A stretch of DNA of 64,000 nt from positions 4,621,234 through 4,685,233 of the forward strand of contig OZ245815.1 of the NCBI GenBank assembly GCA_965228425.1, written 5' to 3'. Made by a program: the position numbers and the translations under genes. A model generated the notes under the pieces. The model had not been told where the DNA came from, made no database searches, and saw nothing but the letters and a program-made list of their open reading frames with translations. The stretch is from Alphaproteobacteria bacterium (lineage in GTDB: Bacteria > Pseudomonadota > Alphaproteobacteria > UBA8366). Of this stretch, positions 8,819-64,000 are shown piece by piece (positions within the stretch are counted from its first letter, which is position 1; every line of letters starts with the position of its first letter).

Positions 8819-9246
8819 GGACGGTCAAAACGCTCTCGCTCGCCGAAGCCAACCTCATCCTCGATGCGGCGCAGGCGAAGTCGGAGGAAATCGGCGTCGC
8901 GCATGTCTTATGCATCGCCGACAATGCCGGATACCCGATCGCATTGCGCCGTCTCGACGGCGGTAAAGTGACCAGCGTCCAGATCGCCGAAAACAAGGCG
9001 TTCACCGCCGCGGGGCACCGCCGCAAGACGCATACCTTCACCAACACGTATCCCGGAGAGGAAGCCTGGGGCATCTTCACCCAACATGGCGGACGGCTGA
9101 CGGTGTTCGTCGGCGGTTTCCCGATCGAAGCGGATGGCGAGGTGGTCGGCGGGATCGGCGCATCGGGCGGCAACGGCGAAGAGGATATCGCAGCCTGCGA
9201 GGCAGGAATCGCAGCGTTCGATGCCTACCTCGCCGCCCAGAAATAG
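8815..9246 (+). CDS. GlcG/HbpS-like heme-binding protein (DUF336)
   Basis: ATGA start/stop overlap with the upstream gene. Motifs are SVQIAENKAFTAA and GGFPI..DGEVVGGIGASGG. Confidence 0.85.
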   Translation: MRTVKTLSLAEANLILDAAQAKSEEIGVAHVLCIADNAGYPIALRRLDGGKVTSVQIAENKAFTAAGHRRKTHTFTNTYPGEEAWGIFTQHGGRLTVFVGGFPIEADGEVVGGIGASGGNGEEDIAACEAGIAAFDAYLAAQK

Positions 9247-9256
9247 CGCGTACGGT

Positions 9257-9607
9257 TTAGGTGAGTGACGCGCTGACGACGATCTCGACCAGTGTTTCGG
9301 GCGACCCCAAAACCGTACCGACCGTGGCACGGGTCGGCGGGTTGGCCGGATCGACCCACTCATGCCAGGCGTCGTTCATCTCACTCTTCTTGGACATGTC
9401 GGAGACATAAACCATCGCGGTCAACAGCTTCGACTTGTCCGTGCCGGCCTTCGCGAGATAGCCGTCGATTTTCTGAAGGACATTCGCGGTTTGATCTTTC
9501 ATCGACGCGGTCTGGTCGTCGGCCGTCAGGCCGCAGACGTAGACGACGCCGTTGTTCACCACGGCGCGGCTCATGGTCGGGTTCGGATCGATCCGTTCAA
9601 TGCTCAT
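9257..9607 (-). CDS. RidA/YjgF family deaminase
   Basis: 116 aa. The sequences VVNNGVVYVCGL and ...ATVGTVLGSPETLVEIVVSA are typical of the YjgF/RidA fold. Confidence 0.9.
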   Translation of the reverse strand: MSIERIDPNPTMSRAVVNNGVVYVCGLTADDQTASMKDQTANVLQKIDGYLAKAGTDKSKLLTAMVYVSDMSKKSEMNDAWHEWVDPANPPTRATVGTVLGSPETLVEIVVSASLT

Positions 9608-10700: not shown

Positions 10701-13094
10701 CTATTGCGCCGTCTGTATAACGCGCCAAACCTTCTCCGCCGTCACGGGCATGTCCAGACCTGCGGTGTCGCAGTCCGATAGCGCATCCAGCACGGCGTTC
10801 ATGACCGCCGGCAATGCGGCCGTCGGACCGGACTCGCCGCAGCCTTTCACGCCCAGCGGATTGGTCTTGCAGAATGTTTCGGTCTGACCCCAATCGAACA
10901 TCGGCAGATGGGTCGCGCGCGGGATGCAATAATCCATGAAGGATCCGGTCAAGAGCTGTCCGCTGTCGCCGTCGTAGAGGCAGTCTTCATACATGATCTG
11001 GCCGATACCCTGCGCGATCCCGCCATGGAGCTGCCCTTGCAGCAGCATGGGGTTGATGACGGTACCGAAATCGCTGACCAGCGTGTAACGGACCACATCG
11101 ACCAAGCCGGTTTCCTCGTCCACCTCGACCTCGGCGACATGACAGCCGCAGGGGTAACTGTAGGCTTCGGCGTTGAAGTGATAGCTCGCCTCGAGACCAA
11201 GTCCGGCGCCCGACGGCATGACCGTCTCATCGTAGGACGCACGCGCCACCTCGGCGATCCCCACCGCCTGATCCGTCCCGGCAACCCGGAACATGCCGTG
11301 ATCGAACTCGATATCCTCGGCGTTCGACTGCAACAAACGCCCCGCGATCGCTTTTCCTTGTTCGACGATGTCACGGGACGCGTGATAGATGGCGGCGCCC
11401 ATCACGGTCGCCGTGCGCGACCCGCCGGAACCGGACCCGCGACCGACCCGGTCGGTATCGCCCTGCACGACGGTGATTTCGTCGCTCGGCACGCCCAACT
11501 GGCTCGCCGCGACCTGCGCGAAGGTGGTTTCGTGGCCCTGCCCATTGGTTTGCCCCGTGGACGTCACCGTCAGGTGGCCGCTCGGATCGAACTGCAACCC
11601 GGCGCGGTTGTCCTTGAATCCGTCCGGTTCGGTGTAGACGGAGAATCCGAAGCCGAGGCGCTTCCCGGCCGCGCGCGCGGCGGCGGACCGGGCGGCGAAA
11701 CCATCGCGATCCGCCTGAACCAGCGCCGCATCCAGGTTCTCCTGAAAATCGCCGCTGTCATAGACCAGGCCCGTCGGTGTCCGGTAGGGCAGGTCTTCCT
11801 CGCGGATGAGGTTGCGCCGGCGCAGGTCCGCGGGGTCGATGCCCGTCTCGCGCGCGGCCGCATCCACCAGCCGCTCGACCATGTAGCAGAATTCCGGTTT
11901 GCCCGCGCCACGATAGGCGGCGATCGATGCTGTGTTGGTGAACACGCATTGCGTTTCGGCATAGACCTTGTCGATGCGATAGACATTGGTCAGCATCCGC
12001 GTGCCGCCGCCGGTCGGGATCACCGGCCCCGACGCGGTGAGATACGCGCCCATGTTGGAAATCGTGCGGCACCGGAGCGCCAAGAATTTGCCGTCGGCAT
12101 CCATAGCCAGCGACGCATGCATGACATGGTCGCGCGCCTGACGGTCGGTCAGGAAACTATCGTCACGATCCGCATACCATTTCACCGGCCGGCCGAGCCG
12201 CTTTGCCGCCCAGCAGACCAGGATCTGTTCCGAATAGATGTAGTTCTTGATGCCGAAGCCACCGCCGACATCCGGCGTGACCACGCGGATACTCGCGGCC
12301 GGCACGCCAAGCCCTTTTCCGGCAAGGCCCGACTGGATTGCCGTGCCGCCGCCGGTCGGCGTGTAGATCGTATAGCGGTCGCCCGCCGGGTCATGCACGC
12401 CAAGCGCGCCGCGCGGCTCCAACGCGGCGACCACGATGCGGTTATGCACCAAATCCACAGTCGTGACGTGGTGCGCCTGGGAAAAGGCGTCTTCGACGGC
12501 GGCCTTGTCGCCCATCTCCCAATCGAGGGCGACGTTCGACGGCAAGTCGTCCCAAACCTTCGGCGATTGCGGGTCCAGCGCATCGACCCCGGCGGTCACG
12601 CACGGCAATTCCTGCCAATCGACCGCGACCGCCTCCGCCGCGGCCTGGGCGGCGGCGCGGGTGTCGGCAACCACCATGGCGACGGTGTCGCCGACATGGC
12701 GCGCCTTGTCGGTCGGCATAGCGGGCTGCGGCGGATTGTGGATCGGCGTGCCATCTTTCCCGGACGGGGACGCCGGCGCCTGCATCAATCCGATCCCGTC
12801 GGCGGCGAGATCGGCCCCCGTCAGAACCGCGACGACGCCCGGCATCGATGCGGCCGCGGCGGTGTCGATACCGCCGATCCGCGCATGGCCATAGGGCGAC
12901 CGCACGAAACTCGCATGGAGTTGTCCCGCAAGGTCGATATCGTCGATGAACCGGCCTCGTCCGGTCAGCAACGCGGCATCCTCGCGGCGCGGCACCGAAG
13001 CGCCAATTCCATCGCCTGTATTGCTGGCGCCACCCGAATGCGCGCCGTTTCCACCATCCTGCATTTTGTGCTTGGTCCGGTTTTTCGGTATCAC
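10701..13094 (-). CDS. xanthine dehydrogenase/aldehyde oxidase family molybdopterin-binding large subunit
   Basis: 797 aa. The N-terminal GASVPRREDAALLTGRGRFIDD signature and the size are typical of CoxL/XdhB-like subunits. The start could instead be 13064. Confidence 0.9.
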   Translation of the reverse strand: MIPKNRTKHKMQDGGNGAHSGGASNTGDGIGASVPRREDAALLTGRGRFIDDIDLAGQLHASFVRSPYGHARIGGIDTAAAASMPGVVAVLTGADLAADGIGLMQAPASPSGKDGTPIHNPPQPAMPTDKARHVGDTVAMVVADTRAAAQAAAEAVAVDWQELPCVTAGVDALDPQSPKVWDDLPSNVALDWEMGDKAAVEDAFSQAHHVTTVDLVHNRIVVAALEPRGALGVHDPAGDRYTIYTPTGGGTAIQSGLAGKGLGVPAASIRVVTPDVGGGFGIKNYIYSEQILVCWAAKRLGRPVKWYADRDDSFLTDRQARDHVMHASLAMDADGKFLALRCRTISNMGAYLTASGPVIPTGGGTRMLTNVYRIDKVYAETQCVFTNTASIAAYRGAGKPEFCYMVERLVDAAARETGIDPADLRRRNLIREEDLPYRTPTGLVYDSGDFQENLDAALVQADRDGFAARSAAARAAGKRLGFGFSVYTEPDGFKDNRAGLQFDPSGHLTVTSTGQTNGQGHETTFAQVAASQLGVPSDEITVVQGDTDRVGRGSGSGGSRTATVMGAAIYHASRDIVEQGKAIAGRLLQSNAEDIEFDHGMFRVAGTDQAVGIAEVARASYDETVMPSGAGLGLEASYHFNAEAYSYPCGCHVAEVEVDEETGLVDVVRYTLVSDFGTVINPMLLQGQLHGGIAQGIGQIMYEDCLYDGDSGQLLTGSFMDYCIPRATHLPMFDWGQTETFCKTNPLGVKGCGESGPTAALPAVMNAVLDALSDCDTAGLDMPVTAEKVWRVIQTAQ

Positions 13095-55631: not shown

Positions 55632-57230
55632 CTACTTATCCAGCCAGACTTCTTCCAACCGCCAGCCGTTGTAGACGCTGTTGGTCATCGTCGTGAAATT
55701 CTTCACGTGCGGCTGCCAACAGGTCGCCGACTTGTTGTTGAAGATGATCGGCCGTGCTGCGTCTTCCTGCAGCTTCTTGTCGATTTCCCACACGACTTTC
55801 TTGCGGGCGTCGACGTCTTCCATCATCGACTGTTTCTCGAAAAGCTTTTCGAGATCGGCGTTGCAGTAACCGGTGTAGTTGCGCTGCGAGCCGCACGCAT
55901 AGTTCTCGTAGAACATGGCGTCCGGATCGTCGACGCCGATACCGGTCAGGTTCAGGCCGACCGAGTAGTCCTTGCGGGCCACTTTGGCATGCCAGTTACT
56001 GGTCTCGACCGTCTCTAGCTCCGCATCGACATAGATGCTCTTCAGATGATCGATCAGGATGACCGCCGGGTCGCGATAGATCGCGATGTTCCGGGTCGCA
56101 ACCTTGACCTTGAGCCGATTGGTATCGCTATAGCCCTTCGACTTCATGATCGCGCGGGCCTTTTCCCGGTTCGCGTTGACGTCCGGGTTGTACCCCGCAA
56201 CCGTCTTCAGGAATTCCGGCGGCATGCCCCAGACGCCACTCGGCGGTGGCAGCAACGCGCCGCTCTTGATGAACTGGCCATGGCCCAGAATCTTGATAAA
56301 GGCATCACGGTCGATCGACATCACCATCGCGCGGCGAATATCCGGATCATTGAACGGCGGCTTGTCCTGATTGACGATCAGGTTGGTCGACACGTTGGTC
56401 GTCCGAAGCTTGCACACCGCATTCGGCGCTTGCTCCTTAACGTCCTTCAGCAACGGAATCGTCACGTCGGAGTTGAACGTCATGTCGAACTTGCCGGCGA
56501 TGAAGGCGAGCACCCGGGTCGAACGGCTCTTGATGATGGTCCACTCGATCGCGTCGAGATGCGGAAGACCCTTTTTCCAGTATTTGTCGTTTTTCGTGAA
56601 CTTTACGAATTCGTTCTGCTTCAACTGAACGAACTTGAAGGGGCCCGTGCCGATGGGATGCGTGCGCATCTTCTTGGGCGGCACGTGGCACGGATAGACC
56701 GGCGAATAGCCGGATGCCAACAACGTCACGAACGCCGGCTGCTTACGCTTCAGATGGAATGTCACCTGCGTATCGCTATCGGCGGTGACCTTGTCCAGAT
56801 TCCGATACCAGGATTTGCGAGGGTTCTTGCGCAGTTTGGCTTTCCGTTTGCCCTGCAGCAGGTCCCAGGTGCAGACCACGTCTTTTGCGCTGAAGGGCTT
56901 GCCGTCATGCCATTTGACGCCCGAGCGCAGATTGAAGGTCAGCTTCGTCTTATCTCCGTTCCACGACCACTTGGTCGCCAGATCCGGAACGATGGTGTCG
57001 ATGCTGTTTGTTGGTTTGCTCTGATCGTACATGATCAGGTTATTGAAGACCGGCATGTAGGGCGACAGCGTGGAGTTCGTCGCTTCCTCATGGATCGATC
57101 CGCTCGGCGGTGTTCCGCGGTGATACACCTTGAGCGTACCGCCGCTCTTTTGCGCGAGTGCCGCCCCGGCGCCAAGCGAGACGGCAAACAATGCGGCACC
57201 TGCCGCACATACACTAATCTTCCGTAGCAT
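55632..57230 (-). CDS. ABC transporter substrate-binding protein, family 5 (peptide type)
   Basis: The start is the ATG at 57230 behind GGGAGGAGA, giving the signal peptide MLRKISVCAAGAALFAVSLGAGAALA. Confidence 0.9.
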   Translation of the reverse strand: MLRKISVCAAGAALFAVSLGAGAALAQKSGGTLKVYHRGTPPSGSIHEEATNSTLSPYMPVFNNLIMYDQSKPTNSIDTIVPDLATKWSWNGDKTKLTFNLRSGVKWHDGKPFSAKDVVCTWDLLQGKRKAKLRKNPRKSWYRNLDKVTADSDTQVTFHLKRKQPAFVTLLASGYSPVYPCHVPPKKMRTHPIGTGPFKFVQLKQNEFVKFTKNDKYWKKGLPHLDAIEWTIIKSRSTRVLAFIAGKFDMTFNSDVTIPLLKDVKEQAPNAVCKLRTTNVSTNLIVNQDKPPFNDPDIRRAMVMSIDRDAFIKILGHGQFIKSGALLPPPSGVWGMPPEFLKTVAGYNPDVNANREKARAIMKSKGYSDTNRLKVKVATRNIAIYRDPAVILIDHLKSIYVDAELETVETSNWHAKVARKDYSVGLNLTGIGVDDPDAMFYENYACGSQRNYTGYCNADLEKLFEKQSMMEDVDARKKVVWEIDKKLQEDAARPIIFNNKSATCWQPHVKNFTTMTNSVYNGWRLEEVWLDK

Positions 57231-57423
57231 ATTTAGGGTCTCCTCCCATTGCATACATTCTAGTTCTTATTGTTTTTCTTATTTGCACCGCTCATATCGA
57301 CAGCGCATTGCGTGTTAGAAAGTGCGTAGGGGGAGGATAGACGGAATCGCGGAAGGGGGGCAATCATATCGTGATCAATTTATGACCGCAGCGGGATTTT
57401 GCCGACAACGGCAGGTTGACACC

Positions 57424-57921
57424 TCAGTCCTCACCGGCGGCTTCGGCGGCAAGCGGACCGCCGATGGAAGGCCGGCCCGCGACATCGACCAAGGCTTCAA
57501 TTCTCTTTCTAAGAGTACCCGGCATATTGACAGCAGGACTGGTGCAGATCTCGGTCAGCGCCTGTTCCAGCAACCCAAGCCGGACGCGTGTGTCGGGATC
57601 GCCCTTCGATGAAAAGGCAGCTTCCAATCGATCGCCGAGCCGTCGCTCGTCGTGGGACCCATGCGAATGCGTCAACGAATGGGCCAGGACGAGCGCGCGC
57701 CGCCAGGTCACCGCCTCCGCCTCGGCGGCGTCTTTGGCGGTCGCCGCGTCGATCAAAAGCGCGATGCGATCGGGCGTGCATAGGTCGTGAAACTCAGCCC
57801 GCGCCTGTTTGACCAGGTGAACATTCGGAAGCCCCACCTCTGCCTCGGCGCACCGCATGAAGTGTTCGAGCCGCTTACCGGAGGCGCGAAGTTTTTCAAG
57901 CCAATCCGGATCGTCCATCAT
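57424..57921 (-). CDS. hypothetical protein, predicted all-alpha, no family recognised
   Basis: This is the C-terminal 165 aa of track ORF 57424..58215. The ATG at 57921 (MMDDPDWLEKL...) lies 19 nt after the upstream gene's stop, and an AGGA lies in that gap. Confidence 0.5.
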   Translation of the reverse strand: MMDDPDWLEKLRASGKRLEHFMRCAEAEVGLPNVHLVKQARAEFHDLCTPDRIALLIDAATAKDAAEAEAVTWRRALVLAHSLTHSHGSHDERRLGDRLEAAFSSKGDPDTRVRLGLLEQALTEICTSPAVNMPGTLRKRIEALVDVAGRPSIGGPLAAEAAGED

Positions 57922-57940
57922 AGTCGGTGGTCCTAAGCGG

Positions 57941-58294
57941 TCAGTTCGTCGAGAAGGCGCGGCAGATCGGCCGCAGAAACGAATCCAAACGGGTTTCCTG
58001 GATGTACAGCAGGCTTCGGCGACCCCGCCGGCGCTTTTGGATCCAACCGATCCGTGCCAGTTTTCGGACATAGGATATGATCGTTGTCCGAGGCATCTCC
58101 ATCGCCGCGGCGAGCGACGATTCATCGAATGGTCGCCGTTCCAAATGTCCCAGGGCGACCATGTCCATGATGATGACCTCGATGGCGACGAATCCCTCGG
58201 CGCGCCGAACGGCATAGTACTCCGCGCGCTGACTCAAGAAACGCCGGGCGCGCTCGAGTTCGGCCTCATCGAGAGATTTCTCCTGCTCTGGCAT
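57941..58294 (-). CDS. small winged-helix DNA-binding protein (putative regulator)
   Basis: Within ORF 57941..58342. MPRTTIISYVRKLARIGWIQKRRRGRRSLLYIQ looks like a recognition helix plus a wing. The start is taken as the ATG at 58294. Confidence 0.55.
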   Translation of the reverse strand: MPEQEKSLDEAELERARRFLSQRAEYYAVRRAEGFVAIEVIIMDMVALGHLERRPFDESSLAAAMEMPRTTIISYVRKLARIGWIQKRRRGRRSLLYIQETRLDSFLRPICRAFSTN

Positions 58295-58413
58295 TCTCAC
58301 ACTGTGGAATTGCCGTTCACCCGGAATAGATCTCGGCGGCAACCCTTTCGATCAAGCGGCCATAGGATACTGTTAACCATTCAGCAAAGTCCTTGCCTAA
58401 TAGCGCCCCCCAT

Positions 58414-58445
58414 CGACAATCTTGTCGAGTTTCGACAAATGTCGA
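58414..58445. promoter_or_regulatory. two adjacent palindromes sharing a CGACA half-site (candidate operator)
   Basis: CGACAA-TC-TTGTCG lies at 58414-58427 and TCGACA-AA-TGTCGA at 58432-58445, about 120-150 bp upstream of the wHTH gene. Confidence 0.35.
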
Positions 58446-58649
58446 CTGCCACTTTAAGTAACGAAACGAACATCATAACGGACCCGGAATTCACCGAAAT
58501 GACCGCGGTCACACGTTAGCGCAGCCGCATCGACCATGCCGGCACGCCACGCGCTGTAAGGGATTATCGCCGTTGTACTTTCGGTATGTTTGTGCGCTCT
58601 ATCATTTTTGCACTTCCCGCGTGTGGTCCACGAAGCGCGCCGCACTCAG

Positions 58650-59828
58650 TTACGTCTTCCCGCTAGCCACCCAGTCCCGGAAAATCCGAAACAGGTCATT
58701 AGCGTTTCGGCCGTATTTCGCGTAGCCGAATTTCACCAATACCTTGCCGCTTTCCGGGTCCACCCCGAGGGCCTGCCCGGCGTAGCCAAGCCCCCAAAAC
58801 CCCGGAGCGTGTTTGTGTTCGGTCCACCATTGATATCCGTAGCCCCGAAAAAACCCGCCGCCGGTGGCAATCTGCGTTACCGTCGCCGCCCGCAAGTAAT
58901 CACCGTAACAACCGGATTTGGCGCGCTCTTCCAGAAGCCACAGGGCGAGACGCCCCCAGTCCGCAAGCCGGGCCTGAAAACCCGCGTGCGCCAAGGCCGA
59001 CCCGGCGCTGTCGGATTCCCAATGGGCGCTATGCGCCGCCCGCACAAAACGCCAGACGGTCTGCTCGAAATACGCGGCCAGACGCCTGCCCGTCGCCCGT
59101 TCCACCGTCCGGGCCAACGCCAACGTGTCACCCGACTTGTAGAGGAAACGGTCGCCCGGCGGATGGATGTTGCGGTTCCGGGTTTCGTTCCAGACCCAGC
59201 CCCACAACGTCTCGTCGATGGTCAACGCGCCGAGCCGCAACGGCCAGGTAATGCCCGAATATTTCCCCAGCAGTTTGCCGCCAAAATTTTGCATCCCACC
59301 GTTCTTGCTCTTATAGGCGCCGGAACTCATGGTCAGGAGCTGGCGCACCGTGCTCCTGCCGAAATTATTGTTGGCCATCTCCGGCACATAGCGGCCCGCG
59401 GCGGCATCCAAACCGGACAACGCGCCCGCGCACAAGGCCCGGCCGACCGCCAGGCTCGTCAAACTCTTGCCGATGCTCATACCGTAGAATTCGCGGCCGG
59501 ACGCACCCATGCCCTGGTAGCCTTCGAAGACGATGCGGCCCCGGTCGATCAAGAGAAAACCGGTCGTCTCGGGATATTTCTCCAGATACCCTTCGACCGA
59601 CGCCACGGCGGCGCGGTCGCCCGCCGCCCTCTCCTCCGGCACGCGGCGCGGCAACGGCCGGGGTTCTGGATGCGGCGTCAGGCGATACGGATCGGTCCCG
59701 CCGGCATCGATATAACCGCCGACGTTGTAGCGCTCCTGCATCCGTGTGTCGCGCGCGGCCGCTGGCGCGACCGCAACGGCAATCACCGTCATCGCAGCAA
59801 CCGAAAGACAAGTGCACCGCAAGTGCAT
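58650..59828 (-). CDS. serine hydrolase, beta-lactamase/transpeptidase-like family
   Basis: 392 aa with an N-terminal signal-like segment and an SxxK motif (MSIGKSLTSLAVG). Confidence 0.85.
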   Translation of the reverse strand: MHLRCTCLSVAAMTVIAVAVAPAAARDTRMQERYNVGGYIDAGGTDPYRLTPHPEPRPLPRRVPEERAAGDRAAVASVEGYLEKYPETTGFLLIDRGRIVFEGYQGMGASGREFYGMSIGKSLTSLAVGRALCAGALSGLDAAAGRYVPEMANNNFGRSTVRQLLTMSSGAYKSKNGGMQNFGGKLLGKYSGITWPLRLGALTIDETLWGWVWNETRNRNIHPPGDRFLYKSGDTLALARTVERATGRRLAAYFEQTVWRFVRAAHSAHWESDSAGSALAHAGFQARLADWGRLALWLLEERAKSGCYGDYLRAATVTQIATGGGFFRGYGYQWWTEHKHAPGFWGLGYAGQALGVDPESGKVLVKFGYAKYGRNANDLFRIFRDWVASGKT

Positions 59829-59906
59829 AGCCAGATCGTCCAGCAGTTGCGGAGCGAGAAACCGCCCCGCGTCGATGCCGATCTTTGACAGAAAAACTTT
59901 AAGGAA

Positions 59907-59957
59907 TGGTGGGCGCGGCTGGGATTGAACCAGCGACCCCTACGATGTCAACGTAAG
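59907..59957 (-). pseudogene. 3-prime portion (about 51 nt) of a tRNA-Val(GAC) gene with no 5-prime half; probable attachment-site remnant
   Basis: The minus strand reads TTACG-TTGACAT-CGTAG (anticodon arm, anticodon GAC), GGGTC (variable), GCTGG-TTCAATC-CCAGC (T arm), CGCGCCC-A-CCA. The expected 5-prime acceptor strand GGGCGCG and a D arm are absent from the adjacent sequence, which is AT-rich instead. Confidence 0.6.
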
Positions 59958-60072
59958 GTCACCTGTTAATGTGCGTCCTGATGATCATTGCTGTTAATAA
60001 GAATATCAATACATTAAATCTCCTGTAACATATTGGTTTAATGATATTCAATCTAGTTTATTTCTGTTATTT

Positions 60073-60142
60073 GTGGGGATTGCGTGGGGTTTAAATCGCC
60101 TCTTGGAGAACAAATATGTTAGAATTCCCCACTAATCCCCAC
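60073..60142. promoter_or_regulatory. four phased copies of the heptamer GTGGGGA/T (two direct, two inverted) just upstream of int
   Basis: GTGGGGA lies at 60073-60079 and GTGGGGT at 60084-60090. TCCCCAC lies at 60126-60132 and 60136-60142. Spacing within each pair is 10-11 bp. A near copy, TCCCCAT, lies at 62141-62147 upstream of the AlpA-like gene. Confidence 0.5.
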
Positions 60143-60159
60143 TGCATATTGGACATAGC

Positions 60160-61341
60160 ATGCCGGGTGGAAGACCTAAGCGATATGCGAAGTTCGAAGA
60201 ACTCGTTGAGGCTTCGATCAAGCGCAAGACAAAGCGCCCTCTCTACCATGACAATATCGGTGTTTACCCTGGAGCACGTGGGCACACTGCGTGGGTCAAA
60301 ATAAACTTGCGCAACGGCACCACATACCGAGGGAAGTCATACCCTTCAGGTCACGCGCTCGAAATGAAGCTCGGCAAACTATCATCCTGGGACTGGAAGC
60401 AACTCGAACGAAAACGAGATGAACTTCAAGGCAAAGCCGACAGAGCAGAACCTCTCGAAGACACGAAGCCGCCGATATTCCGAGATTGGGCTAATGAATG
60501 GTTGGAAAGAGCTAAGCCGCGACTTCGGAGCTATCCGATCGTACGTGCTCACATAAAACAGCATCTCTTGCCCGAATTCGGAAATAGGGCTCTCGATTCA
60601 ATTACAGTGGGTGACGTAAATTCTTGGACTTCGAAGAAGCTCAAGGACCAGAAACCCGCAACAGTCAAACGGGAACGCGACACGCTACAAGTCATATTGA
60701 ACGAGGCCGTCCGCGAAGGGTTGATCAGTAGCAACCCATGCCAGCACGCGGTCAAGATTTCGGGGATCGTCGGCAGGCGGCGATATCTCAATGGCGAAGA
60801 GCTTACAAGTCTGCTCACGTCAGCCGAACTAGTCGCAGATTGGCTTCCGGACATAATTCGTTGGGCTGTTCATTCAGGGATGCGAAAGAGCGAAATCCTC
60901 TCACTTAGATGGGAGGACATTGCGCAATTCGAAGATGGCCGAGCCTTTGCAACCGTTACGCATAGCAAGACTGATGAGCCAAGGCTGGTGACCTGCACAA
61001 GGGAGATGAAAGAAGTACTCGAACGACAGAAGAGACGACAATCAACGAGTGGCGGTAGCATTTTTCCTGTCGCACGAATGACACTCCGCCGAAAATGGGA
61101 AAAGGCGAGAAAGGGTGCCGGACTGGAAGACGTAACAATGCATGATCTTCGTCGTACGCACAGCACACACGCAGCAGTCGCTGGTGTCGACCTTCGGACG
61201 CTTGCGTACCGCATGGGTCACAGCGATCTGACTATGTTGCAGAAACATTATGCGTCAATTGTGGGTTCCGCCTCCGTTGAAGCAGCAGAGAAAGTCCAAA
61301 GCGCATTTGACAAAATCTCTGATACCGATGGCCATGACTGA
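60160..61341 (+). CDS. int: tyrosine-type site-specific recombinase (phage integrase family)
   Basis: 393 aa. The C-terminal catalytic region has HSGMRKSEILSLRW (Arg I), HDLRRTHSTHAA (HxxR) and HSDLTMLQKHYA (His/Tyr). Confidence 0.9.
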   Translation: MPGGRPKRYAKFEELVEASIKRKTKRPLYHDNIGVYPGARGHTAWVKINLRNGTTYRGKSYPSGHALEMKLGKLSSWDWKQLERKRDELQGKADRAEPLEDTKPPIFRDWANEWLERAKPRLRSYPIVRAHIKQHLLPEFGNRALDSITVGDVNSWTSKKLKDQKPATVKRERDTLQVILNEAVREGLISSNPCQHAVKISGIVGRRRYLNGEELTSLLTSAELVADWLPDIIRWAVHSGMRKSEILSLRWEDIAQFEDGRAFATVTHSKTDEPRLVTCTREMKEVLERQKRRQSTSGGSIFPVARMTLRRKWEKARKGAGLEDVTMHDLRRTHSTHAAVAGVDLRTLAYRMGHSDLTMLQKHYASIVGSASVEAAEKVQSAFDKISDTDGHD

Positions 61342-62071
61342 GCACGTTTCCACGCTCGCGCAGTTGCATTTACGCGGAAGCAACTTTTTAGTGATTGTTG
61401 CGAATGAAAGCGGTCACTCGACAGAGATCCAAAGCAAGTTAGACAAGAACGCTAATTTGTTCGGGAATGAGGTCGGAATCGCAGCACGTCTCGTTCGCGC
61501 AACATCAAGAGCACACATAAACGTGTCTCGGGAGCTACTGGAAAAACCCTGGCCGCCAGAGGTGTTGAACCGAATGCGGCGAGAAGAGGATCCCTATCTA
61601 GTATTTATTACCGACGTAGATTTTGATGAATTCAATCCAGGTAGTCATGATTGGAGAATTTTGTGGCTCGGGAATGCCCGAACACCCGGCAATTCGATCC
61701 CTAGATTTTTTGGCATCTTGCAACAAGCAATCAGCAACGGAGAAACACCATTCACGTTGCTTGATCGTGTTAGTGACGAACAGACAGGCGCCTCGGTTTA
61801 CGGCTCCATCACATCACCGCATAGGCTGCAGGCAGCCGCTTTAGAACGTGGTCCAGGTAGACCCGGCATCATGGATCCTGGCTATGGCATTCGAGAGTGG
61901 ATCGACGAGCAGGCTCATCAAGGTAATCTGCAAGATCGTTCCCGTGGTTGGAGAATCCGCTTGGTAGACCGTTTGATCCAAGAGAAACCGAACCTTCCGG
62001 GCAATCGAAAATCTGTTAGAGATGCGATAACACGAGCCGGACTGTTTGCAGAGCTGCAAAACAAACAATAG
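61334..62071 (+). CDS. hypothetical protein translationally coupled to int
   Basis: This is in-frame ATG 61334 of track ORF 61250..62071 (MTEHVSTLAQLHLRG...), 245 aa. The ATG lies 5 nt before the int stop, so the genes overlap by 8 nt (ATGACTGA). I recognise no family. The C-terminal RGPGRPGI and SVRDAITRAGLFAEL hint at DNA binding. Confidence 0.6.
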   Translation: MTEHVSTLAQLHLRGSNFLVIVANESGHSTEIQSKLDKNANLFGNEVGIAARLVRATSRAHINVSRELLEKPWPPEVLNRMRREEDPYLVFITDVDFDEFNPGSHDWRILWLGNARTPGNSIPRFFGILQQAISNGETPFTLLDRVSDEQTGASVYGSITSPHRLQAAALERGPGRPGIMDPGYGIREWIDEQAHQGNLQDRSRGWRIRLVDRLIQEKPNLPGNRKSVRDAITRAGLFAELQNKQ

Positions 62072-62177
62072 CCGGCTGGCAATGGCGTTATTCCTATTCC
62101 AAGGCTAGTCAATTAACGCCTTAGTTAAACGCATTCGGAATCCCCATTCTCCTTGTCACTAATCCCTGTAAGGAGAA

Positions 62178-62411
62178 ATGGAAATGCCACGCAACGTCGA
62201 TTCCGACTGCCTCCTCCTGAGTGATTGTCAGGTAGCCCGCATGCTCGGCTTTTCACGAAGCTGGATGCGGCAACAGCGATTCAAGAGAAAGCACAATCTT
62301 CCTCATCACTTTGATTTAGACCCAGTCTGGATTGGAACATCGCCGCGCTATCGCGTTGAAGATGTGAAGGCATGGATCGAGCGTTTAGCCACGAATGCTG
62401 CGGCTCAATAG
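62178..62411 (+). CDS. AlpA / excisionase-type helix-turn-helix protein
   Basis: 77 aa. LLLSDCQVARMLGFSRSWMRQQR...SPRYRVEDVKAWIERL follows the AlpA/HTH_17 pattern (an HTH followed by R-W/Y-x-x-x-x-V-x-x-W). Confidence 0.7.
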   Translation: MEMPRNVDSDCLLLSDCQVARMLGFSRSWMRQQRFKRKHNLPHHFDLDPVWIGTSPRYRVEDVKAWIERLATNAAAQ

Positions 62412-62419
62412 GCACCGCC

Positions 62420-63754
62420 ATGCCCTGTAACTTCATCGACGAAGATGCGTATTGGGAAGGTATATGCCTCGACGAATTGTCGGCCGAGGCTGAAGCTTAT
62501 GACTTTAAGAAATTCATAGACTTCAATCTTACCGTCCAGAATGGGGAGATGGACGCAGCCGTCTCACACCTCCTACCCATTCTTCGACAAACTGAAGCGG
62601 CACGCCGAGGGCATCTTCAAAAGACGGCGGTGGCATTACGCTTGGTGCTTGCAAACCTAATTCGGAATTTTGGGCTCCACCCAGACCTATACACCGCATA
62701 TCCAAGAAACAACGAAGGCTATCCGGATCAGCGCTATAACCCTACGAACGCAAAGCTAGTTGGCACGAAGAGAGCAGTAGATGGCCTCACTGAACTCGGG
62801 CTGATTACCAATCATACTGGATTCTATCGCCGAGATTACGGATACGGACGACTATCCCGGATGCGTGCTACGCAACAATTTTCTGAAACACTGAGAGACC
62901 GATTTGACCTCACGCCGGAACGCATAATCGCCAACCCGGACGCGGAAACTATCATCCTCCGGCAGGCTGGCAGGCCAATTCCGTATGTGGATACCGATCA
63001 AACGCATGCGATGCGAGCACAACTAGCAGATTACAACGCTCGGCTTTCGGCTGCGGATATCTCAGTCGCATTAACCCAAGATCAACACGAAGATTTCGGG
63101 CCCGAACCGGTCGATTTCGGATCCAATACCTACCGCCGGATTTTCTCTAGGGGACGGTTCGACCGAGGAGGCCGATTCTACGGTCCCTGGTGGATCAACG
63201 CGAGGCGCGCCATTCGACAACACATTCTGATCGACAATCAGCCGACAGTCGAATGCGACTACTCAGGCCAGCACCTACATATCCTCTATAGCCTTGCAGG
63301 GCTCAACTATCATCGAATCGATAACACAGGCGATCCTTACAACATGGTCGAGGCGGCAGTAGTAGATCGCGATTTCCTCAAGGTCTGCCTCCTAGTCGCT
63401 CTCAACGCCAGATCCAAAACTGGAGCACTGACCTCATTACGGAACAAGGTCCAAGGTCATCCTGAGTTGCAGGAAGTGGATTTAAGAGACCTACTATCCG
63501 GATTTGAAAGAAAGCATGAGTCAATAGCTCATCACTTTTTCTCTGATGTGGGGGTAGAGCTTCAATATCGAGACTCTTGTCTTTGTGAGTATGTGGTCAG
63601 GAGGCTAATGGAAGACGGAATTCTAGGATTAGCCATCCATGATAGCTTCATAGTCCAAAGACCGTACGAAGATAGGCTTAGAACTATCATGCAAGAGGCC
63701 TATATCCAGTATGGATATGACTCTATCCCCTCCATTCACAGCAACATTCAGTGA
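62420..63754 (+). CDS. hypothetical protein with family-A polymerase / T7-type RNA polymerase-like motif series (putative island polymerase or primase)
   Basis: 444 aa counted from the ATG at 62420; the alternative ATG at 62372 overlaps the AlpA-like gene. The motifs occur in this order: DRGGRFYGPWWIN (nt 63161-63199), ECDYSGQHLHILYSLAG (D280, nt 63257), RDFLKVCLLVALNA (R317/K321, nt 63368-63409) and LAIHDSFIV (D408, nt 63641). Confidence 0.6.
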   Translation: MPCNFIDEDAYWEGICLDELSAEAEAYDFKKFIDFNLTVQNGEMDAAVSHLLPILRQTEAARRGHLQKTAVALRLVLANLIRNFGLHPDLYTAYPRNNEGYPDQRYNPTNAKLVGTKRAVDGLTELGLITNHTGFYRRDYGYGRLSRMRATQQFSETLRDRFDLTPERIIANPDAETIILRQAGRPIPYVDTDQTHAMRAQLADYNARLSAADISVALTQDQHEDFGPEPVDFGSNTYRRIFSRGRFDRGGRFYGPWWINARRAIRQHILIDNQPTVECDYSGQHLHILYSLAGLNYHRIDNTGDPYNMVEAAVVDRDFLKVCLLVALNARSKTGALTSLRNKVQGHPELQEVDLRDLLSGFERKHESIAHHFFSDVGVELQYRDSCLCEYVVRRLMEDGILGLAIHDSFIVQRPYEDRLRTIMQEAYIQYGYDSIPSIHSNIQ

Positions 63755-63763
63755 TTAAGGCCT

Positions 63764-63838
63764 AAGGACCAAATTTCCATAGGTCAAAATGAAGGGAGAG
63801 GGGGGGATGATAACTAGGAGCAATTTTTTTTGGTCCTT
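63764..63838 (+). other. 10-bp perfect inverted repeat after the polymerase-like gene, enclosing G7 and T8 homopolymer tracts
   Basis: AAGGACCAAA (63764-63773) and TTTGGTCCTT (63829-63838) are exact reverse complements, followed by TTTGAA. The roughly 55-nt loop contains GGGGGGG and TTTTTTTT. Confidence 0.3.
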
Positions 63839-64000
63839 TTTGAATGCGTTTTGGGACGTGGTCCGCATCCCAATTTTCAGCAATTCGCCTCCTAAACCTG
63901 ATCGTTCCCCTCAAAAATAGCCAGCAATACAATTACACTGTTTCAAGATGAACAATGGGACAGGCTGGATCGCAATTAACCATCAATTTGCGTTCTATTG

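Follow-up and report, generated by a model that had tools for sequence, protein, structure and literature searches.

What kind of DNA begins where the base composition of an alphaproteobacterial contig changes at a fragment of a tRNA gene, and what is the role of the large protein encoded near its integrase? We address both questions in a stretch of 64,000 nucleotides (nt) from Alphaproteobacteria bacterium (lineage UBA8366; assembly GCA_965228425.1, contig OZ245815.1, forward-strand positions 4,621,234 to 4,685,233), hereafter called the window and numbered from its first letter. We hold it to be very probable that the segment at the end of this window is an integrated element. With moderate confidence, we further interpret 59907-64000 as the integrase-proximal end of a small site-specific element in tRNA-Val(GAC) that follows the mechanism of integration and replication proposed below. 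The chances that the 444-amino-acid (aa) polymerase-like protein of this element serves as a replicase or primase are, in our judgement, about even.

The junction at tRNA-Val(GAC)

The G+C content is 0.620 over positions 1-59907 and 0.495 over 59959-64000, and the lowest value among 280 other 4-kb windows of the stretch is 0.573. At third codon positions (GC3), it is 0.48-0.55 in the four genes of the island and 0.77-0.81 in the flanking core genes, a gap indicating that the island segment is foreign and little ameliorated. A preliminary description of this DNA had reported a sharp fall in G+C at the tRNA fragment. The fall (from 0.62 to 0.50) was reproduced, its break lying within 3 nt of the position noted at that time (59958), and a recount of 60001-60060 returned exactly the 14 G+C bases in 60 that had been counted by hand.

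Alignment with intact tRNA-Val genes showed that 59907-59955 (minus strand, 49 nt) matches the 3′ portion of tRNA-Val(GAC) at every position, extending from the anticodon stem over the T arm as far as CCA. This fragment, which is the integrase-proximal att core, occurs as a single copy within the window. ARAGORN found no complete tRNA in the window, and Rfam found none in 57000-64000. The 3′ end of the fragment is directed away from the island, which marks it as the displaced chromosomal 3′ end. With the displaced end on the integrase side, a reconstituted, intact tRNA should stand at the far end of the element, outside the window; an integrated element is thus expected to be accompanied by a second copy of TACGTTGACATCGTAGGGGTCGCTGGTTCAATCCCAGCCGCGCCCACCA and an intact tRNA-Val downstream of 64000. 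The same layout is seen in a related element (L001), which has an intact tRNA-Glu at its far end and an 18-nt repeat on its integrase side. Two Rfam matches were discarded. One, named HPnc0260 antisense RNA (59890-59942; 34.9 bits against a gathering score of 59), is a false lead because it corresponds simply to the T arm and acceptor portion of the tRNA-Val fragment, read from the other strand; the other, to a miRNA, is spurious.

A tyrosine integrase with an intact catalytic domain stands at this end of the island. Its gene (60160-61341, plus strand, 393 aa) is transcribed into the element. The protein matches Pfam Phage_integrase (PF00589) at E 3.8e-23 over profile positions 2-166 of 172, and also Phage_int_M, Phage_int_SAM_3 and, at 2.8e-57, phrog_1; its translation displays the R...HxLRxT...HY motifs. 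Between the tRNA fragment and this gene lies an AT-rich att arm and integrase upstream region (59956-60159, unstranded, G+C 0.36). It contains short inverted repeats, such as 60026-60038/60109-60121 and 60069-60079/60126-60136, which are candidate binding sites for the recombinase or a regulator.

A sister element at the same site was found on a Thalassobaculum chromosome (L044). It is 8,964 bp long and lies at tRNA-Val(GAC), with both att copies visible as a 54-nt direct repeat that encloses an integrase, a small helix-turn-helix (HTH) protein and a homologue of the 444-aa protein. The junction in the window agrees with the far, integrase-side att copy of L044 at 96.7% over 61 nt. The two elements have the att arm in common, sharing the element-side bases AACAG[G/C]TGAC outside the tRNA, and their integrases are 55.6% identical over 387 aa. 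This likeness of junction and integrase indicates that the window holds the integrase-side junction of a related element that used the same attB. Together with the composition step, the tRNA-fragment junction, the integrase and the sister element uphold the earlier proposal that an integrated element begins here.

The flank of the island was also compared with that of a syntenic relative (L090), which has a serine hydrolase 82% identical to that of the window, the same peptide-ABC (opp-type) operon and the MFS gene. No integrase, HTH or polymerase-like gene is present beside its serine-hydrolase gene. The tRNA is also missing there, so that the comparison demonstrates non-conservation rather than a clean empty attB.

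The 444-residue polymerase-like protein

The largest gene of the island (62420-63754, plus strand) encodes a minimal family-A-polymerase-like protein of 444 aa. It starts at Met17 of an open reading frame (ORF) of 460 aa, is 100% identical to P0001 and ends inside the window, so that it is the element and not the protein that runs off the window. No sequence match to it was found in Pfam, NCBIfam, PADLOC or PDB, a PDB profile search was negative, and the only PHROG that it matched is one of unknown function.

An alignment of 48 homologues reveals four invariant motifs: GGRFYGGWW (R252), in which GGRFY is T/DxxGR-like; ExD(Y/F)S (D280), with ExDYS as motif A; RxxxK (R317 and K321), motif B; and HDSF (H407 and D408), motif C. 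They follow one another in canonical order, and we take them to resemble motifs T/DxxGR, A, B and C of the superfamily of family-A and single-subunit RNA polymerases (Klenow, T7 DNA and RNA polymerases). Among 129 sequences, R240, G251, R252, D280, Y307 and K321 are conserved in 100%, H407 and D408 in 99% and R317 in 98%. Such invariance of active-site residues argues for an active enzyme.

An AlphaFold 2 (AF2) model built on the 48-homologue alignment reached a pLDDT of 91 and a pTM of 0.88. In this model D280 ends a strand (274-281), R317 and K321 lie on a helix (317-329), and H407-D408 occupy the turn of a hairpin (404-413). Klenow and T7 polymerases place their motifs in the same way in the canonical palm and fingers layout, and the predicted structure as a whole has a Klenow-type fold of palm, fingers and thumb. 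In a Foldseek comparison with PDB, family-A DNA polymerases took each of the top 50 places, with E 1e-6 to 3e-5 and probability 0.99-1.00; Bst, Taq, M. smegmatis Pol1, apicoplast Pol and T7 gp5 are among them. Against BFVD viral models, the first 11 matches are phage proteins of the same family, followed by phage PolA. Furthermore, hhalign sets motifs A and C against their counterparts in T7 gp5 and motif C against that in T7 gp1; motif B (RDFLK versus RDNAK) aligns only after a one-residue shift made by eye. Judged from the model, the protein appears to be a miniature polymerase of the DNA polymerase I/T7 RNA polymerase fold with a complete and conserved active site. The preliminary description had placed it in the slot usually held by a primase or replicase, and the predicted polymerase fold, as seen by AF2, Foldseek and motifs, bears this out.

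The protein has no exonuclease domain. Its N-terminal part (about 230 aa) instead contains a unit of helix and beta-hairpin with an LxxLGxIE signature that is winged-helix-like in the model, and this part weakly matched the winged-helix ribosomal protein S19e. The winged-helix-like look makes the unit a plausible DNA-recognition module. In addition, several features bear on the type of chemistry. Motif C, HDSF, is the same as in T7 RNA polymerase, and GGRFY is similar to its RGRVY. Five residues beyond the motif A Asp, the 129 sequences have His, Asn, Ser or the like but in no case Glu, which at this position forms the steric gate of DNA polymerases. The position of the O-helix Tyr is taken by a conserved Asn (N329). 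These residues lean toward RNA-polymerase-like or primase-like chemistry without deciding for it.

The family is large: a full hidden Markov model search over 1.84 billion representatives of 50% identity clusters yielded 12,225 relatives with E<=1e-3, of which 6,096 have E<=1e-30. When GTDB was scanned with one genome per species, 399 of 415 pattern matches were found to encode a relative of the polymerase-like protein. The hosts include SAR11 (several HIMB isolates), SAR116, Rhodospirillales, roseobacters, Mesorhizobium, Rhizobium and Ensifer, and further Nitrosomonas, Methylophilaceae, Geomonas and Desulfovibrio. By contrast, only 4 relatives were present in the 2.9 million contigs of IMG/VR. 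Homologues do occur in 286 phage records, including those of ICP1 and other Vibrio, Aeromonas and Rheinheimera phages. The neighbours of phage homologues are early or variable genes, with an XRE regulator adjacent.

The annotated bacterial and phage records that we examined name members of this family as hypothetical, except for one Rheinheimera phage entry that reads 'DNA polymerase'. The groups PolA1, PolA2, PolA3 and PolA1-like of a 2026 census of bacterial DNA polymerases do not include the 444-aa protein (PMC12926913), and no mention of such proteins was found in the 2023 reclassification of PolA. We found no literature on a PolA-like replicase in islands or satellites; as coverage was incomplete, an earlier description is possible.

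Some details of the phage homologues are recorded here as side observations. ICP1 isolates carry two clearly different alleles, which share about 32% and about 25% of their residues with the Aeromonas phage query. ICP1-type homologues lie at HQ641347.1:53935-54771 (ICP1 ORF100) and MW794168.1:57942-59021, and all of them bear the annotation 'hypothetical'. Two homologue copies per genome are found in several large marine phages of Vibrio and Aeromonas.

Related elements and competing explanations

The 82 loci fetched for comparison contain 73 integrase ORFs. Direct repeats of 17-82 nt that derive from a tRNA enclose the polymerase-like gene together with one integrase in 37 loci, so that the second att copy is visible in L044 and 36 other relatives. 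These delimited elements span 2.5-12.8 kb (median 8.5 kb) and target tRNAs for Val, Glu, Gly, Met, Leu, Pro, Phe, Gln, Ser, Thr and Ala. Clustering of their 349 ORFs placed the polymerase-like gene in 37/37 and the integrase in 36/37 elements; the next cluster has 7. The smallest ones, L056 (4.0 kb) and L013 (5.0 kb), hold little besides these two genes. The polymerase-like gene and the integrase are therefore the only conserved backbone of a large family of tRNA-flanked elements of 2.5-13 kb.

The sole further gene that recurs in more than three delimited elements encodes a serine resolvase of about 200 aa (Resolvase and HTH_7). It is present in 7/37 (L005, e.g. 8968-9540, L029 and five others) and may resolve multimers of a replicating circle. 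The rest of the cargo includes type IIG and type I restriction-modification systems, retron-type reverse transcriptases, AbiL, AriA/OLD-like ATPases and many unknowns. Such defence-type genes in relatives fit the expectation, voiced in the preliminary description, that defence or other accessory cargo would lie beyond 64000.

Five of the related elements come from Pelagibacter (L004, L034, L039, L047 and L059). They are 7.5-10.5 kb long, with repeats of 54-68 nt at tRNA-Val, tRNA-Gly or tRNA-Met. SAR11 genomes are usually regarded as poor in mobile elements. As further side observations, an HNH_3 protein adjoins the pair of HTH and polymerase genes in L044, and a cargo trio in the same element (L044:11501-15156) consists of a DUF7002 protein, a protein of 543 aa in which a P-loop kinase-like AAA domain is fused to an adenylosuccinate-synthetase-like one, and a protein resembling IrrE/M78 peptidases. 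The trio may be an uncharacterised defence or regulatory module.

In the mechanism that we propose, the tyrosine integrase would have recombined an element-borne copy of the tRNA 3′ end with the chromosomal gene, leaving the displaced original 3′ fragment next to the integrase gene. The HTH protein would assist excision or regulation. Once excised, the circular element would replicate from an origin of its own, which the polymerase-like protein would bind through its N-terminal winged-helix-like domain; the protein would then make a primer (of RNA or DNA) or carry out strand synthesis, and the host replisome would complete replication of the element. Transfer from cell to cell could depend on other vehicles such as phage, gene transfer agents, vesicles or conjugative helpers. 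We propose a replicase or primase role because, down to elements of 4-5 kb, the integrase has no conserved partner other than this protein, following the logic that has been applied to piPolB in pipolins.

The order of integrase, alpA-like HTH and replicase is also that of phage satellites (PICI, P4 or PICMI-like), which stay silent until a helper phage arrives and are then excised, replicated and packaged in helper capsids. The related elements are of similar size, phage records hold homologues of the polymerase-like protein, and marine virion-borne integrative elements of similar size have been documented (PMC9618062). However, no gene for a terminase, capsid, portal or interference function was found in 59959-64000, and neither packaging nor relaxase families appear among the 25 commonest Pfam families (120 cargo proteins from the 37 elements). 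Relatives are scarce in IMG/VR compared with bacterial genomes, and the smallest elements consist of the integrase and the polymerase-like gene only. We therefore regard a satellite as improbable. The terms 'satellite-type' and 'mobilisable', used in the preliminary description, find no support in a packaging, relaxase or oriT gene within the visible 4 kb. An integrative and conjugative or integrative and mobilisable element was rejected, as no relaxase domain or type IV secretion genes were seen among the visible island genes, and a prophage end was rejected because phage structural and lysis genes are lacking and related elements do not exceed 13 kb. Just as little credit can be given to a decayed remnant, that is, an old insertion whose far end was lost or rearranged and which can no longer excise, its genes being kept by chance or domesticated. 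The second att copy is out of view, and the rearranged locus of L090, with a boundary lacking the tRNA, indicates that the region is plastic. But none of the four ORFs is truncated and they are closely spaced, the integrase can be aligned over its whole length with a 56% identical homologue, every invariant residue is retained in the polymerase-like protein, and GC3, about 0.51 here but about 0.79 in the host, shows little amelioration.

A different question is whether the element replicates passively with the chromosome, its polymerase-like protein being a mini T7-type RNA polymerase or a nucleotidyltransferase of defence or counter-defence. The RNA-polymerase-like motifs (HDSF, and GGRFY beside RGRVY), the lack of a steric-gate Glu, the weak contact of 3/48 members with Pfam RNA_pol (PF00940; best E 0.066) and the position of phage homologues among early or variable genes beside an XRE regulator all speak for this explanation. 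We nevertheless consider it unlikely. Besides the integrase, this is the sole gene common to all delimited elements, including those of 4-5 kb with almost nothing to transcribe, a pattern of backbone maintenance rather than of a cargo effector, and PADLOC gave no match to the protein. As RNA synthesis would also suit a primase, this alternative partly overlaps with the replicase or primase role that we propose.

Several observations weigh against our interpretation of the segment as a self-replicating element. The window ends at 64000, short of the far att copy and of a return to high G+C, and the completeness and mobility of the present copy are only inferred. No circular or episomal contig was found among the 95 loci included in a circularity check and relatives in IMG/VR are few, so that excision and replication are putative. 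A search of the island for origins and iterons yielded nothing above chance and no convincing iteron-type origin. With regard to the protein, Pfam DNA_pol_A (PF00476) did not match even at E 10, hhalign against PolA and T7 RNA polymerase gave E 0.05-0.14, which is not significant, and hmmsearch was negative, so that no significant match to a PF00476 or PF00940 profile was obtained. Since sequence-only comparison is not significant, the homology rests on predicted structure and motifs; because such methods miss the relationship, we name the protein 'PolA-like' and do not file it in a curated PolA family. The TM-scores obtained with PDB polymerases, 0.22-0.35, are low, but a protein only about half as large as these would be expected to score in this way. 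Finally, the homologues in large lytic phages show that the protein can serve roles beyond island replication.

Other genes, known systems and wider meaning

The two remaining genes of the island lie between the integrase and polymerase-like genes, both on the plus strand. The first (61334-62071, 245 aa), which overlaps the integrase stop by 8 nt, has no family match; a search among 5.8 billion proteins found only the protein itself. A single-sequence AF2 model of this ORFan was poor (pLDDT 43) and unusable. It is probably an element-specific cargo or regulatory protein. The second (62178-62411, 77 aa) encodes a small HTH protein of the MerR/AlpA/excisionase type. It matches HTH_17 at E 1.5e-5, where its 25.6 bits fall a little short of the cut-off of 27 bits. 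A second match, at 3.2e-5, is to phrog_66 ('excisionase and transcriptional regulator'). The gene sits immediately upstream of the polymerase-like gene, and homologous HTH ORFs are found immediately 5′ of that gene in L014, L030 and L044. An excision or regulatory factor of the AlpA/Xis type is the likely identity of this protein. All four ORFs of the gene order given in the preliminary description (integrase, unknown gene, alpA-like HTH, large protein) were thus recovered, with the integrase intact and facing into the island, and the family searches agree with its remark that the non-integrase genes have no obvious housekeeping role. PADLOC returned no significant defence match in the visible 4 kb, its sole match being that of the HTH protein to PDC-M06B (E 7e-4). 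A scan of the island for promoters and terminators gave nothing above chance.

The polymerase-like gene is followed by an AT-rich stretch (63755-64000, unstranded, G+C 0.43), and the element continues past the window end. In L056, from a metagenome-assembled genome of Ensifer, an AT-rich cluster with three imperfect AATAGATATAA-type repeats (11357-11412) likewise lies near the 3′ end of the polymerase-like ORF. An origin at this position is possible, and 63755-64000 may be put forward, speculatively, as a weak candidate.

On the other side of the tRNA fragment, the spacer between the peptide-binding-protein and serine-hydrolase genes (57255-58649) has a lower G+C content (0.58) and contains small ORFs, one of which (57941-58342, minus strand) gives weak winged-helix matches (TrmB and HTH_27). 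Two small unannotated genes, of 117 and 165 aa, occupy the spacer position in L090. A 432-aa ORF (58590-59888, plus strand) antisense to the serine-hydrolase gene (58650-59828, minus strand) is not a gene; it was rejected, together with similar ORFs elsewhere, as an artefact of stop-codon-poor DNA of about 65% G+C.

The island and the related elements conform to the published architecture of tycheposons, the tRNA-targeting integrative elements of Prochlorococcus (bioRxiv 10.1101/2020.12.28.424599). An inward-facing tyrosine integrase lies at one end, cargo is variable, tRNA repeats are partial, a small replication module adjoins the integrase or sits at the opposite end, and sizes range from a few to about 20 kb. 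The replication hallmarks of tycheposons are mainly primases and helicases, with polymerases also listed, whereas here a minimal PolA-like protein without a Pfam or NCBIfam profile is found. The hosts also differ, being cyanobacteria for tycheposons and Alpha-, Beta-, Gamma- and Deltaproteobacteria for the present family.

Satellites of the PICI, P4-like and PICMI types resemble the island in being small, in their site-specific integration (at tRNA or other sites) and in the order of integrase, AlpA-type HTH and replication protein. They use primases of the Pri-Rep, AEP or DnaG type with helicases, and carry packaging or hijacking genes. By contrast, none of these was detected in the visible 4 kb, nor are they frequent in the related elements. 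Compared with Pol I, T7 gp5 and T7 gp1, the protein agrees in its predicted palm and fingers fold; its T/DxxGR-like, A, B and C motifs follow the same order in the same secondary-structure setting, and both catalytic Asp residues and the O-helix Arg and Lys are present. It differs from them in its size, which is half or less, in having neither a 3′-5′ nor a 5′-3′ exonuclease domain, in N329 at the O-helix Tyr position, in the missing steric-gate Glu, in its winged-helix-like N-terminal domain and in the lack of a significant profile match.

A further parallel is provided by pipolins, self-synthesising integrative elements with a primer-independent family-B polymerase (PMC5695915, PMC11551731). 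Both systems combine a self-encoded enzyme of DNA-polymerase fold with a tyrosine recombinase, tRNA-derived direct repeats and variable, defence-rich cargo. The polymerase belongs to family B in pipolins, whereas here it is a 444-aa protein with a family A/T7-RNA-polymerase-like fold, and primer-independent synthesis, proven for piPolB, is a hypothesis in the present case. Extending this parallel, we tentatively suggest that the 444-aa protein could be the founding example of a very large, unrecognised clade of minimal polymerases that lack an exonuclease and stand between the DNA polymerases of family A and the RNA polymerases of the T7 type. Its members would act as origin-specific, self-priming replicases or primases of widespread tRNA-targeting mini-islands, a family-A counterpart of pipolins that would shuttle cargo, defence genes among it, in SAR11, SAR116, roseobacters, rhizobia and numerous further Proteobacteria. 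We would not rate this broad proposal as high as an even chance.

The island itself is of an ordinary, known kind: integrated at a tRNA, integrase-bearing and compositionally foreign. The new part is the gene in its replication slot, which has thousands of sequence clusters and no Pfam or NCBIfam model. Together with an integrase, this gene marks thousands of comparable mini-islands of marine and soil bacteria. If the protein is a replicase or primase, these islands would represent a new class of integrative elements that replicate themselves, found in bacteria that rank among the most abundant on Earth, and the protein would be the smallest known natural enzyme of the PolA/T7 RNA polymerase fold, which is relevant to the evolution and engineering of polymerases. 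In that case, the combination of integrase, polymerase-like gene and tRNA repeat would also offer a simple marker for cargo and defence islands that current tools miss.

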